Translations under genes and position numbers: made by a program
Origin: a virus
Lineage: Duplodnaviria; Heunggongvirae; Uroviricota; Caudoviricetes
Strand: one strand, 5' to 3'
DNA: 64,000 bases
Virus record (IMG/VR): IMGVR_UViG_3300033273_000374
Location: 138,914-202,913 of that record
Part shown: piece after piece, positions 3,965-56,136 of the stretch
How positions within the stretch are numbered: the stretch's first letter is position 1
Layout of the letters: every line of letters begins with the position of its first letter
The notes under the pieces: generated by a model
What the model was told of the DNA's origin: nothing
Database searches by the model: none
The model's input: the letters and a program-made list of their open reading frames with translations, nothing else

Positions 3965-4425
3965 TAACTTAGTTCTACTGTTTGCCCGGGCTTGAGTGCA
4001 TCTTTAGGATCTTTGGCTCCTGGTACACTACCTTTGGGCTTGATTTTTGATTTTTTAGTGGCTGGGTCAACTTCTACATCTACTTTGTCTAGATCAATTT
4101 CTACACCATCACCTGCTTCAATCTTGTTGCCCATACGTTTTGTAATTTTAATTTCTTGCTCGCTAACACCTCTTTCTAGTGCTCTTTTTAGCATTTCAAT
4201 GTTTCGTCTTGCACTGACTTTGATGTCTGGATTTGCATCCCATGCTGCTTGTTCTTTATCAATTAAACTTTTGAGTACATCTGCATCGCCTTTGCCCATT
4301 TGAGCAGCACGCACTGCGTCTAGTACTTCACGCTCTGCTGCTTTGCGTTCTGGACTGTACACTGCGTTTATTTGTCTAATAGCATCATCTATGGCTGTGT
4401 TTTCTACAAATTCATTTAGTCTCAT
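3964..4425 (-). CDS. Probable internal head protein
   Basis: 153 aa; N-term MRLNEFVE. Confidence 0.5.
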   Translation of the reverse strand: MRLNEFVENTAIDDAIRQINAVYSPERKAAEREVLDAVRAAQMGKGDADVLKSLIDKEQAAWDANPDIKVSARRNIEMLKRALERGVSEQEIKITKRMGNKIEAGDGVEIDLDKVDVEVDPATKKSKIKPKGSVPGAKDPKDALKPGQTVELS

Positions 4426-4703
4426 CGGTTCAATGCCTTTACTCTACGACTTGCAGGGTTTACTCTTTTGGTTCTTTTTGCTTTACGAGCCATTCTAGCA
4501 CCCATTCTTGCTTTTGTCAATTTAAGTTTGATACGTTTTTTGATGTCAGGTGCAGCAAAGCACTGTGCTGGTGTAGCAACAATGCGTCCTTTGCGTCTGC
4601 CGCTGGTGCAACGATACTTGCGCACGACTTTGTTGCCACGCTTGGCCCAAGCCATGCCCTCATTGAGGCCCAACACTTCTGGTATAATATCACCTATTAA
4701 CAT
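4422..4703 (-). CDS. Highly basic small protein, probable nucleic-acid-binding virion protein
   Basis: 93 aa; very K/R rich after LNE-G; TAAATA 5 nt before ATG. Confidence 0.6.
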   Translation of the reverse strand: MLIGDIIPEVLGLNEGMAWAKRGNKVVRKYRCTSGRRKGRIVATPAQCFAAPDIKKRIKLKLTKARMGARMARKAKRTKRVNPASRRVKALNR

Positions 4704-4722: not shown

Positions 4723-4980
4723 CTATTTTAGTAAAACAAACACTGTGCTGCTGAGTGCTACAGCAAGTGCACCTATGATGGCTGTGGCCCAGCCTAGCAG
4801 TTGACGATTACGGAACTGGTCATTCTTTACAACCGCAGTTCTAATTTCTGCAATATCGTTGTCCTGCTTGGCCATATGTTCAATGATACGATCAAGTTTG
4901 TTATGCAATTGGTTGTACCTTTCTCCACACAATTCAACGTGTGCTTCAAGGCTCTCTTTTTCAATATCGGTTGTTGACAT
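4723..4980 (-). CDS. Coiled-coil plus C-terminal TM protein (holin-like)
   Basis: 85 aa; SLEAHVELCGERY coiled coil then LLGWATAIIGALAVALSSTVFVLL. Confidence 0.5.
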   Translation of the reverse strand: MSTTDIEKESLEAHVELCGERYNQLHNKLDRIIEHMAKQDNDIAEIRTAVVKNDQFRNRQLLGWATAIIGALAVALSSTVFVLLK

Positions 4981-5028: not shown

Positions 5029-5075
5029 TGCCTGTGTATTGCCTAGTGTGTGCCTTGTAGCATCACTATTATTTA
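5029..5075 (-). promoter_or_regulatory. Late promoter TAAATA followed by 3x AGGCA at 11-nt period
   Basis: TAAATA at 5070-5075; AGGCA (plus-strand tgcct) at 5051, 5040, 5029. Confidence 0.6.
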
Positions 5076-9894: not shown

Positions 9895-10626
9895 ATGTCA
9901 ATACAAGATAACCCTGGCGGCCATTTCGCTGAATTGGCCCGTATAGCATACATGACAGAAAAAGAAAGTAGACCTATTGCTAAAAAGATGGGATATAAGA
10001 AAACAAAACTCATCGATCAAAACGGTGCAGAGTGTCTTTTTTTAGAAAATGACGACACACTGGTGTTAGCATTCCGTGGAACAGAGCCCAAAGAGTTCTC
10101 AGATATTAAAGCAGATCTCAAAGCATGGAAGCGTAAAAGTAAAACCTGGGGCATGGTCCACGCAGGTTTTTATGAATATCTCAATAAAATTTGGGAAAGT
10201 GTGTTAAGACACATCAACTACGGCGACAGAGAAACAAAAAAATTGTATATTTGTGGACACAGTCTTGGTGGTGCAATGGCCACACTTGCTGCAAGTCGTT
10301 TGCAAGATCGTGTGATAGGATGTTACACCTATGGATCGCCACGTGTGGGTGGTCGTGTTTGGCGTAGCAAATGCACATTTGAACATCACAGATACGTCAA
10401 CAACAATGACATTGTGCCACGTGTTCCATTTTGGATTATGGGTTTTAGACACTATGGCGAATTACACTATATCAATCATTATGGTAATATTCGTAAACTC
10501 ACAGCCTGGCAGAAGTGTAAAGATCAATGGCGTGGACGATTGAGAGCATGGCAAAAGCGTGAGTTCTTTGATGGTGCTCGAGATCACAGCATGGTTCAAT
10601 ACAGTAAAAAAATTAACAAGAGTTGA
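9895..10626 (+). CDS. Class 3 lipase (alpha/beta hydrolase)
   Basis: AFRGTE, VHAGF, GHSLGG nucleophile elbow, YGSPRVG, NNDIVP, DH; strong GGAGGAG RBS. Confidence 0.9.
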   Translation: MSIQDNPGGHFAELARIAYMTEKESRPIAKKMGYKKTKLIDQNGAECLFLENDDTLVLAFRGTEPKEFSDIKADLKAWKRKSKTWGMVHAGFYEYLNKIWESVLRHINYGDRETKKLYICGHSLGGAMATLAASRLQDRVIGCYTYGSPRVGGRVWRSKCTFEHHRYVNNNDIVPRVPFWIMGFRHYGELHYINHYGNIRKLTAWQKCKDQWRGRLRAWQKREFFDGARDHSMVQYSKKINKS

Positions 10627-10658
10627 CCAAAAATCTTGTTTGCCTAGTTTTGCTGTAC

Positions 10659-10733
10659 TAAATACACTGTCATTTCAATGACACCAGGCACAAATAAAAC
10701 ATACTATAGGCATTTAGGCAAACAAGAGGCAGC
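10659..10733 (+). promoter_or_regulatory. Late promoter, hairpin and 4x AGGCA leader of DnaE
   Basis: TAAATA 10659-10664; TGTCATT/AATGACA inverted repeat 10668-10683; AGGCA at 10686, 10708, 10716, 10727. Confidence 0.6.
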
Positions 10734-12434
10734 ATGAAGTTACCAAACGATGCAGAGGCACAACTAAATCGATTACTAGGCGCATTCATAAGGCAAATAC
10801 CAGAGGCACCCGAATATCGAGAGAGACTGGTCGAAGAACTTGAGATCATACTCAAATTACGCTTCACCGATTACTTCCTAACAATTTGCGATGTACTGAC
10901 GCTAACCGCGGACATTCCCCACATGACCAGAGGTTCAGCAGGGTCAAGTCTTGTGTGTTACCTATTAGGTATCACTGATGTGGATCCCATAAGATGGCAA
11001 ATACCGGTTGCACGTTTCCTAAATCCTTTGAGGGATGACTTGCCAGATGTGGACATAGACTTTCCGCATTGGCAACAGGATACTGTGATGCAAAGAGTAT
11101 TTGCGAAATGGCCTGGTCGCAGTGCAAGAATCAGTAACTATGTGCTATACAAGGAGCGCAGTGCCCGTAGAGAAGCGGCACGCCGTCTTGGCGCATCTGG
11201 CAAACTCCCTCGCAATTTTAAGTATGAAGATTATGACATCGATAAGGAAGAGGCAATGAGGCTCGAAAAGAAACTACTAGGCAAAAAAAGATCAATATCA
11301 AAACACTGTGGTGGCATTGTGATACTAAAACACAAGGTGCCAAAAAGTCTAATCAACCAAGACAATCAGTTGATGCTGGACAAAAGAGAAGTAGAAGATT
11401 TAGAACATCTAAAAATAGACATACTGGCCAACAGAGGGTTGAGCCAACTGTTAGAAATAGACAGTGACACACCACTGGAAGCATATCCAGAACAAGATTT
11501 TGAAACATCACAACTGTTGTGTAGAGGTGATGTGCTAGGCGTAACGCAGGCTGAGTCCCCGGCCATGCGACGCCTGTTCCAAGCAATACAACCACAATCA
11601 AAAGCAGATTGTGTGTTTGCCACAGCACTGATTCGTCCTGTGGCCACAACAGGAAGACAAAAGGCAGCATTTTTTCAAGACTGGACAGAAAGCGCACTAG
11701 AAGATACCATAGTGTATGAAGATGATGCCATACACAAAATAGCAAACCTAATTGGTTGCGACATGTATGAAGCAGACATGTATCGTCGTGCATTTGCAAA
11801 ACGTGACGAAGAACGTGTGATGGAATTTATGGGCAAGATGGGAGAATGTGAAGACAAAGAACAGATTATCCAAGAACTGTATGGCTTGGGTAACTTTGGG
11901 TTGTGTAGAGCACATGCTGTGAATCTTGGAAGGCTGATTTGGGCATTAGCATATCAAAAAGCACACAACCCAAAGGATTTTTGGCGTGCTGCACTCAAAC
12001 ACTGTGTGGGATCATACAGACGTTGGGTACACAAAACGGAAGCAAAGAATGCGGGGTGGGATCTACGTGAACTGGGTTATGAGAATGGCATCACCAGCAC
12101 ACCACAAGCACAGTATCGCAAACATGGTTATTGGACACAACCTGACTTTATGCCTGGTATGTTTATACAAGAAACTTGGGGCGATAGAGTAAACTTTGCA
12201 GGACTCATAGCCAATGGCAGAACATTCCGTGGTGAAAGTGGACGCTATGTTACATTTGTTACTGCAGGCATTGCCAATGGCGAGTATGTGGACATCACAG
12301 TCAAACGTCCGTTCTCACACAAGGATCATGATGTTATTGTGGGTTCAGGTAAGATACGCATAAGCAACGGTGCACGTTACATTGAGTGTTATGATGCACA
12401 AGGTCATAGATTAGAAAAATATTTGTCAAATTGA
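10734..12434 (+). CDS. dnaE: Family C DNA polymerase (DnaE-like) lacking the PHP domain
   Basis: RGSAGSSLVCYLLGITDVDP, FLNP.R, PDVDIDF, HCGG, KIDIL (three catalytic Asp), C-terminal OB-like segment. Confidence 0.9.
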   Translation: MKLPNDAEAQLNRLLGAFIRQIPEAPEYRERLVEELEIILKLRFTDYFLTICDVLTLTADIPHMTRGSAGSSLVCYLLGITDVDPIRWQIPVARFLNPLRDDLPDVDIDFPHWQQDTVMQRVFAKWPGRSARISNYVLYKERSARREAARRLGASGKLPRNFKYEDYDIDKEEAMRLEKKLLGKKRSISKHCGGIVILKHKVPKSLINQDNQLMLDKREVEDLEHLKIDILANRGLSQLLEIDSDTPLEAYPEQDFETSQLLCRGDVLGVTQAESPAMRRLFQAIQPQSKADCVFATALIRPVATTGRQKAAFFQDWTESALEDTIVYEDDAIHKIANLIGCDMYEADMYRRAFAKRDEERVMEFMGKMGECEDKEQIIQELYGLGNFGLCRAHAVNLGRLIWALAYQKAHNPKDFWRAALKHCVGSYRRWVHKTEAKNAGWDLRELGYENGITSTPQAQYRKHGYWTQPDFMPGMFIQETWGDRVNFAGLIANGRTFRGESGRYVTFVTAGIANGEYVDITVKRPFSHKDHDVIVGSGKIRISNGARYIECYDAQGHRLEKYLSN

Positions 12435-13390
12435 TCAAGTCCAAATCTAAACTGATCCATAAAACTGTCTAAATTTTCTCTAACCAGTGATAAATTTTTT
12501 TGGTGTCTATCCATATAATCCAGTTTCTTCACATTGTGATTTTCTAACAATTTACGATTAAGTTCTAGTGCATTTAAAATTCTTAGACCCGGATGTGCTT
12601 CATATTGATAGCTGTGATCAATTACATCATCAAATACATCAAAACCTATACGTGTAAGCTGTTCTGGCATAGCATATCCACCGCAAAATATAGGAAAACA
12701 ACAACCGTGCAATGTCATTAAATATTTTTCTGTAATTATGCAACCTTTTTCCCAAAAGACAGGTTCAGTAATAATACTAAAAGTACTGGAACAAAACTTT
12801 TCACTAAAAATAGCATTCCACAATTGGGAATGAGGCTTTCCGTTGTCATACTCTGGTGGATTGGTAATTCCTTCAAAAGGTATAAATTTTTTCTCTAAAA
12901 AACTATCAAATTTATATGGTGTTAAACGAGTGAATTCATCAATCATTATAAAGTGTTCGTTTTCTATTTCCCAACTTTGAGTATACTCAAAATCTATATG
13001 TCTATTTTGACTGAACCATGCGCTAACAAGAAGTCTATTTTCTCTACGCTTATTCATCATAACGAAACAATTTTTTTCGTCTGAATATTCTGCTGCAGAG
13101 ACATTTTTTAAGAAATCTTTACAGTTTTTTAATAAAATATACGGAATATATGTGTAAGGATATGGGAAATCTTTCCAATACAGGTATTCCCACCACACAT
13201 GCTCTACATTTACATTTTGTTTTTTGATAATTGACTCTATGCTATTGTAAGACTTGTCTATGTAAATACCTTCGTCGTTGTATTCAATTTTAGCATCCTC
13301 CCACGACACCGGTGGTTGATGATCTATAACAAATACCCAGCCATCATTGCCTGGCTTGATTATACCATCTGCTGTATCAATTAAAAGCAT
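12404..13390 (-). CDS. Conserved phage protein, TEK family paralogue
   Basis: IITEKYL..L...FPIF..GFDVFDDVIDHSY; MMNKRRENR. Confidence 0.55.
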   Translation of the reverse strand: MLLIDTADGIIKPGNDGWVFVIDHQPPVSWEDAKIEYNDEGIYIDKSYNSIESIIKKQNVNVEHVWWEYLYWKDFPYPYTYIPYILLKNCKDFLKNVSAAEYSDEKNCFVMMNKRRENRLLVSAWFSQNRHIDFEYTQSWEIENEHFIMIDEFTRLTPYKFDSFLEKKFIPFEGITNPPEYDNGKPHSQLWNAIFSEKFCSSTFSIITEPVFWEKGCIITEKYLMTLHGCCFPIFCGGYAMPEQLTRIGFDVFDDVIDHSYQYEAHPGLRILNALELNRKLLENHNVKKLDYMDRHQKNLSLVRENLDSFMDQFRFGLDQFDKYFSNL

Positions 13391-56057: not shown

Positions 56058-56136
56058 TGCCTATGTTTAGCCTTAATTTGTGTGCCTAAATCACACACTG
56101 TAAGAACAGTATATGATAACGTATTTAGTAGGTCAA
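56058..56136 (-). promoter_or_regulatory. Nested sigma70 and late promoters with AGGC(A) repeat leader of gp32
   Basis: TTGACC-17nt-TATACT containing TAAATA; AGGCA 56083, AGGCT 56069, AGGCA 56058. Confidence 0.65.

Follow-up and report, generated by a model that had tools for sequence, protein, structure and literature searches.

An AGGCA box array shared by the leaders of a DnaE-type polymerase gene, a gp32-like gene and a membrane-protein gene in an uncultured marine jumbo phage: a candidate translational operator

The pentamer AGGCA is repeated seven times in the leader and first codons of a gene for a DnaE-type DNA polymerase in an uncultured marine jumbo phage, thereby raising the question of what reads the repeats, and whether they are read in DNA or in RNA. 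The gene lies in a stretch of 64,000 nucleotides (nt), hereafter the window, which forms the last 64 kb (positions 138,914 to 202,913) of a single 202,913-bp phage contig with 39.7% G+C (IMG/VR record IMGVR_UViG_3300033273_000374). Related sequences were drawn from the ocean phage fragments of IMG/VR. In the original prediction, the repeats serve a phage repressor as sites for multivalent binding, in RNA or DNA, or else act as a template or priming element for the unusual polymerase. The AGGCA boxes are best read as a conserved cis-regulatory array in the mRNA leader and not as a curiosity of the polymerase gene. [quoted passage not shown] A clear and easily mutated code links these three genes across many uncultured ocean phages.

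The array at the DnaE-type gene is real and far beyond chance. Seven exact copies of AGGCA and one AGGCG were found between 10686 and 10808 on the plus strand, as previously described; four copies belong to the 5' untranslated region (UTR) and the others to the open reading frame (ORF) (Table 1). AGGCA occurs 145 times on the plus strand of the whole genome, about once per 1.4 kb and within the earlier estimate of one per 1-1.5 kb, and the DnaE array is the only plus-strand cluster in the genome with at least four copies in 130 nt. Among all 1024 pentamers in the 203-kb genome, this array was the most significant cluster (Poisson tail 8e-12; next best 5e-9). Non-coding AGGCA clusters were present at three genes only, namely those for the DnaE-type polymerase, the SSB and an 85-amino-acid membrane protein, in keeping with the earlier observation of this element ahead of gp32 and of a holin-like gene. 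Unbiased scans of five large related contigs returned non-coding two- or three-copy matches only at the same three gene families. The remaining two- or three-copy matches in this genome and the five contigs were coding, except two minus-strand pairs outside the window (genome 53885-53898 and 99697-99713; copies 9 and 12 nt apart), both of which end 9 nt upstream of the TTGACA -35 element of early promoters (genome 53898 and 99713). A role of AGGCA as a general upstream or Shine-Dalgarno (SD) element was rejected: 15 copies were counted in 6,027 positions at -25 to -1 of 287 called genes, an enrichment of about 1.5-fold, whereas AGGAG was 17-fold enriched in the same interval and the SD of the genome is AAGGAG.

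The leader of the DnaE-type gene presents the boxes between a promoter motif and the start codon. The TAAATA reported ahead of the array is part of CTAAATA, and the inverted repeat that follows it was placed correctly in the original prediction, with a stem of 6 bp and a 4-nt loop in place of the 7 bp claimed. Outside this hairpin, the leader contained no significant structure (z = -0.4). The last 5' UTR box overlaps AGAGG (10725-10729), 4 nt before the ATG; the claim that no canonical SD exists was thus overstated, this SD being weak and closely spaced in a phage that usually uses AAGGAG. In the genome, 63 of 136 copies of NTAAATA are intergenic (intergenic sequence makes up 6% of the genome), mostly 10-40 nt before a start codon, and the motif appears to behave as the T4-like late promoter of the phage. 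About 39 sigma-70-like promoters (TTGACA, 16-18 nt, TAnnnT) mark the early genes. TAAATAAA is conserved before DnaE in relatives, including those with a divergent upstream gene. Because relatives differ in the gene upstream of DnaE, which in some of them is divergent, the gap of roughly 110 nt must hold a promoter of the DnaE-type gene itself, for which TAAATAAA is the sole conserved candidate; transcription starts given here are predicted from such motifs. A terminator on the minus strand, for which TAAATAAA would supply the U-tract, was also considered as a reading of the hairpin and is disfavoured: the G.U pairs favour the sense strand, and TAAATA is promoter-like genome-wide.

The boxes and their arrangement are conserved in relatives. 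At least 80 IMG/VR contigs contain a DnaE homologue at 68-99% identity, and their leaders follow a common plan: TAAATAAA, hairpin, (A/T)GGCA, A-rich spacer, AGGCA, 3-6 nt, AGGCA, 0-8 nt, ATG. The repeats, whose absence upstream of homologues would have refuted the original prediction, stand as invariant islands in about 60 leaders, and the start codon and N-terminus of DnaE are common to about 60 homologues. In an alignment of 25 non-redundant leaders, the last two boxes were invariant and the first nearly so (A/TGGCA), with variable spacers; the second DnaE box of the window is missing from most relatives. Each leader holds two to seven box copies, down to 58% protein identity. A homologue at 68% identity has three boxes directly after a sigma-70-like promoter, and in another, at 58%, ATAAATA is followed by two boxes and then the ATG. 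The 5' hairpin was found in each of the 25 non-redundant relatives; its stem occurs in at least seven sequence versions and shows compensatory changes (RNAalifold), and G.U pairs in two lineages let the sense strand fold better than its complement (-10.6 versus -5.3 and -13.7 versus -8.1 kcal/mol). The most distant DnaE homologues retain the boxes and not the hairpin, and the nearest DnaE among GenBank phages (LR756508, 39% identity) has no box array.

The same boxes precede the SSB gene. A fold search of the AlphaFold model of the SSB (predicted local distance difference test score, pLDDT, 73.5; built on 26 homologues) against the PDB gave only T4 and RB69 gp32 chains at E<=0.001 (E 7e-7 to 4e-4, probability 1.0), whereas a plain sequence search against the PDB gave no gp32 match; the model thus predicts a gp32 fold. 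The 61 related SSB leaders (63-89% protein identity) hold 132 AGGCA, 21 AGGCT and 20 TGGCA, with a mean of 2.16 AGGCA per 100 nt; in these leaders the reverse complement is almost nil (mean 0.016 per leader) and the reversed word has no copies. The box consensus is T followed by AGGCA and two positions that are each A or C, and the flanks are almost without G. Spacing is 8-16 nt, or about double where a hairpin intervenes, and differs between close relatives. The boxes occur in sense orientation only and, a few leaders excepted, follow the promoter; in relatives, 0-8 nt separate the last box from the ATG of DnaE, and in SSB leaders this box adjoins, lies within or follows the SD. Boxes were also present in the SSB leader of four related contigs (24-72% complete) in which no DnaE homologue was found.

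Transcription of the SSB gene probably begins at both early and late starts, as judged from a CTAAATA nested in the spacer of its sigma-70-like promoter. T4 gene 32 likewise has both early and late starts. The same nesting occurs in SSB relatives, whose leaders open with a conserved hairpin that contains G.U pairs and whose 5' arm includes the -10 hexamer (both features observed over loci L081-L160). Because the -10 hexamer forms this arm, early and late SSB transcripts would differ by the 5'-terminal stem-loop.

Neither AGGCA boxes nor a DnaE homologue were found in five relatives in culture, the jumbo phages PA5oct, Atu_ph07, Vibrio phage 2.275.O, Phosso and Yen9-04, whose SSBs are 46-58% identical, so that no experimental data can be transferred from them. 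The SSB leader of Agrobacterium phage Atu_ph07 (L173) has two copies of AGCACAA and that of Vibrio phage 2.275.O (L172) two copies of GGTACAA, about 30-90 nt upstream of the SSB start, and each pair is unique in its own 350-490-kb genome. Such lineage-specific repeats appear as expected if operator and binder co-evolve, and in this way support lineage-specific operators. Leaders of gp32-like genes may quite generally carry short repeats, which would differ from one lineage to another.

The third array, before the membrane-protein gene, ends about 49 nt before the ATG, and its gene-proximal box region is identical to that of the first DnaE copy at 15 of 16 bases. In homologues at 39-98% protein identity, the leaders retain three or four (A/C)GGC(A/T) boxes at intervals of 10-13 nt.

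The copies inside the DnaE ORF are restricted to a narrower group of relatives. They had been described as in-frame copies, which is incorrect: those at 10756 and 10804 read GAG-GCA and that at 10791 reads AGG-CAA. They use minor codons (GAG, 19% of Glu codons; AGG, 6.6% of Arg codons), and at least three AGGCA in the first 30 codons were obtained with a probability of about 0.001 in synonymous resampling with the protein fixed and genome codon usage. Only the 10791 copy (AGG-CA) is kept in the wider clade (DnaE identity at least 80%); those at 10756 and 10804 occur in the closest relatives only.

Table 1. Coordinates of the three box arrays and of the associated genes and signals in the window
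Feature	Coordinates	Strand	Basis or remark
CTAAATA, late-type (T4-like) promoter motif of the DnaE leader	10658-10664	+	Genome-wide placement and conservation before DnaE
Hairpin, 6-bp stem and 4-nt loop, at the predicted 5' end of the DnaE leader	10668-10683	+	
Four AGGCA boxes in the unstructured 5' UTR (10686, 10708, 10716, 10727)	10686-10731	+	
DnaE-type DNA polymerase gene, 566 amino acids, without PHP domain	10734-12434	+	PF07733, E 5e-43; PF17657 (finger domain), E 2e-13
Three AGGCA within the first 25 codons (10756, 10791, 10804) and AGGCG at 10778	10756-10808	+	
gp32-like SSB gene, 328 amino acids	55054-56040	-	phrog_1192, E 2e-64
SSB leader boxes AGGCA (56087-56083), AGGCT (56073-56069), AGGCA (56062-56058)	56058-56087	-	End 4 nt before the AAGGAG SD
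SSB promoter, sigma-70-like TTGACC-17-TATACT, with CTAAATA (56128-56122) within the spacer	56108-56136	-	
Three AGGCA with exact 11-nt spacing, leader of the membrane-protein gene	5029-5055	-	Downstream of ATAAATA 5076-5070
85-amino-acid protein, N-terminal helical part and C-terminal transmembrane helix (earlier 'holin-like' gene)	4723-4980	-	

We propose that the AGGCA array is an RNA-level translational operator, built like the operator of T4 gene 32 and probably bound by the SSB, and we give this reading a probability of roughly 0.45. The transcript would begin at or just after the TAAATA-type promoter and open with a 5'-terminal hairpin, after which unstructured, G-poor and A/C-rich RNA would present two to four boxes of the form U-AGGCA-(A/C)(A/C), 8-16 nt apart, the last of them abutting or overlapping the SD and start codon; in the clade of this phage, three further boxes would extend the array into the first 25 DnaE codons. 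A multivalent or cooperative single-stranded-RNA-binding protein could occupy the boxes, cover the ribosome-binding site and throttle translation. Free SSB, once single-stranded DNA is saturated, would then repress the synthesis of SSB, polymerase and membrane protein. From the observed motif, its strict orientation, position and conservation, and the set of three genes, we infer the action in RNA, the repression and the identity of the binder. RNA is favoured because the boxes are in sense orientation, lie between promoter and start, contact the ribosome-binding site, vary in spacing and have unstructured, G-poor flanks; moreover, 5' RNA hairpins under structural selection point to a signal read in the transcript. 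The regulator-binding part of the original prediction fits all findings and is partly supported, the evidence leaning towards RNA.

The T4 gene 32 operator, through which gp32 represses its own mRNA, consists of a 5' folded element followed by more than 40 nt of less-structured RNA with UUAAA/UAAA repeats and the ribosome-binding site; both parts are needed, and the operator targets have diverged between T4 and RB69 (PMC535899, PMC3014915). The array described here resembles it in standing in the leader of a gene for a gp32-fold SSB, in having unstructured RNA with repeats and a ribosome-binding site after a 5' structure that may correspond to the T4 element, and in a motif that varies by lineage, as the T4 and RB69 targets do. 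It differs in the repeat itself (AGGCA in place of UUAAA/UAAA) and in its simple conserved 5' hairpin in place of the T4 pseudoknot; no pseudoknot was found, and no dedicated search for one was made. The SSB is ranked as the most likely binder because the T4 gene 32 operator has the same layout and because the array stands before the gp32-fold gene, including on the four contigs without a detected DnaE homologue. The array is oldest and most widespread before this gene. The polymerase and membrane-protein mRNAs would most likely be extra targets of the SSB, and the DnaE array, which fronts a different gene, is at best a second target of a gene 32-type system.

The polymerase itself was considered as the binder by comparison with T4 gene 43, in which the DNA polymerase acts as repressor of its own mRNA through a hairpin and an adjacent single strand overlapping the ribosome-binding site (PMC3014915). 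Both are polymerase leaders in which a hairpin precedes a single-stranded segment covering the ribosome-binding site. They differ in that the polymerase here is DnaE-type and not family B, and in that the sequence and loop of the hairpin vary here, only the pairing being conserved. The boxes are common to the SSB gene and occur on contigs in which no DnaE was found, which argues against the polymerase as binder. In the RegA regulon of T4, one repressor acts on about 30 mRNAs at A/U-rich unstructured sites at the start codon. The likeness lies in one motif at the initiation regions of several genes, including replication genes, in unstructured RNA; unlike that regulon, the present set has three genes only, its motif contains G/C and is multi-copy, and no RegA homologue was detected in the 203-kb record. 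Multi-site leaders bound by oligomeric proteins are also known, such as the GGA sites of CsrA and the NAG repeats of TRAP and HutP. These share several short identical motifs, variable spacing and a single-stranded leader with one motif overlapping the SD, whereas the core here is GGC, not GGA or UAG, and the boxes lie mostly outside hairpin loops. A literature search for AGGCA in phage leaders gave nothing relevant, and no Rfam family reached its gathering score anywhere in the window.

Several points weigh against an SSB-bound RNA operator. Recognition of a pentamer that contains G/C is not known for gp32. T4 gp32 controls only its own mRNA, whereas the array here also precedes the DnaE-type polymerase and membrane-protein genes. 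The position of the membrane-protein array far from its ATG and its exact 11-nt period would also suit a DNA-binding protein, and the two AGGCA pairs at early promoters are at odds with a role in leader RNA, though they may be chance or a hint of a DNA-level role. A transcription start 6-7 nt downstream of TAAATA would leave the RNA without part of the 5' arm of the DnaE hairpin. Finally, the genome record is about 57% complete (CheckV), so that a dedicated regulator could be encoded off the contig.

A bolder version holds that the SSB evolved sequence-specific reading of AGGCA and runs a post-transcriptional regulon of the polymerase, itself and a lysis-associated membrane protein; we regard it as doubtful. 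If it is true, free SSB would read the single-stranded DNA exposed at forks, thereby coupling replication status to polymerase supply and lysis timing.

The first rival explanation places the signal in DNA: a phage transcription factor would bind the AGGCA direct repeats in double-stranded DNA and repress or activate the three genes. Winged-helix regulators such as PhoB or OmpR recognise direct repeats. The exact 11-11 nt period at 5055-5029 (10-13 nt in relatives), the interval that most often separates the last two DnaE boxes (10-11 nt) and the AGGCA pairs upstream of the two early -35 elements are consistent with such a factor. However, spacing of 8-16 nt that shifts between close relatives would rotate the sites around the helix, the boxes reach about +70 and into the ORF and track the ribosome-binding site instead of lying over the promoter and tracking -35/-10, and the G-free, single-strand-like flanks and 5' RNA hairpins suggest that it is the transcript on which selection acts. 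We consider a DNA operator rather unlikely. As a separate candidate, a MotA-box-like middle promoter was rejected: the window offers one fortuitous fit (AGGCA-11 nt-TACTAT), and the leaders of relatives have no -10 hexamer 11-13 nt downstream.

It is improbable that the boxes are translation enhancers or standby sites, that is, SD-like (AGG) landing pads or sites of rRNA pairing that raise initiation without a repressor. Many DnaE leaders have no SD-like element other than the last box (AGAGG or AAAGG, with 2-8 nt to the ATG), the SSB is needed in large amounts, and the flanks are A/C-rich and unstructured, points that speak for an enhancer. When anti-SD pairing at 5-9 nt from the start was required, only the AGG or GAGG of the last box fitted, 2-8 nt from the ATG, and the invariant CA and the upstream boxes were left unexplained by an SD reading. 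This CA is not complementary to the anti-SD. The normal SD of the phage is AAGGAG, SSB leaders have an SD besides the boxes, and some relatives have only 2 nt between the last box and the ATG, a distance too short for an SD. The membrane-protein array, with its long distance to the ATG, lies upstream of its own SD.

The same RNA array could have another reader, such as a dedicated RNA-binding protein, a RegB-like endoribonuclease or a trans-acting RNA with UGCCU repeats. To read a specific pentamer is more usual for dedicated regulators than for gp32, the incomplete record may hide such a factor, and the genome encodes regulatory RNAs elsewhere. Against this, RegA (PF01818) had no match in the 203-kb record, although a control search also matched nothing and the absence is unproven at this completeness, and the box variants AGGCT and TGGCA are not wobble-compatible with an antisense RNA. 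Another reader is an unlikely solution. As to specific RNA partners, no non-coding UGCCU cluster that could serve as an antisense or sponge RNA was found in the genome, and the phage anti-SD hairpin RNAs (30.6-30.8 kb) were rejected, their loops being C/U-rich, without UGCCU and not complementary to AGGCA.

A replication origin, iteron or priming template for the DnaE-type polymerase, as suggested by short direct repeats beside an A-rich stretch and promoter near replication genes, is highly improbable and the corresponding part of the original prediction found no support: the boxes occupy three separate leader loci, always in sense and tied to start codons, they occur in SSB leaders on the four contigs without a detected DnaE homologue, and the cumulative GC skew is monotonic over 203 kb, with no origin signal.

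If the array is an operator read by the SSB or another protein in RNA, it would provide an experimental handle on gene regulation in a phage group of which no member is in culture, a way to learn if proteins of the gp32 type are able to read sequence, and a simple marker for co-regulated genes in viral metagenomes. Replication proteins under autogenous translational control, a classic of T4 biology, are known from only a few cultured phages, where each of these proteins acts on its own message alone. If it is a DNA operator or an enhancer instead, the motif would still be a new, conserved regulatory signal of the clade.

The genes behind the arrays also showed features of their own. The polymerase had been described as a PHP-less DnaE, and the domain search agreed, with PF07733 and a finger domain matched and no PHP match in the ORF. 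A class-3 lipase gene (PF01764, E 2.5e-25; 9895-10626, plus strand) lies directly upstream of the DnaE-type gene on the same strand; the two form a small plus-strand island in a contig with about 85% of its genes on the minus strand, and the lipase adjoins DnaE in several relatives too. At its other end, the DnaE-type gene converges with a minus-strand gene (12404-13390) and overlaps it by 31 nt (12404-12434). Because this overlap leaves no room for a terminator, antisense read-through across DnaE seems possible.

The 85-amino-acid membrane protein had no Pfam or PHROG family match, and its nearest named Atlas cluster is XhlA-like, a label held by 16% of the members and thus a lead only. Five AGGCA in 70 nt were observed in a related phage (G002:C1:78094-78163, L167) inside a C-terminal coding region, and this run looks like a by-product of an Ala/Gly/Glu-rich peptide and not a regulatory array. 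Right after the 85-amino-acid gene, an extremely basic (K/R-rich) protein of 93 amino acids is encoded on the minus strand (4422-4703) with its own ATAAATA 12 nt upstream; it matched no family and may be nucleic-acid-binding or virion-internal.

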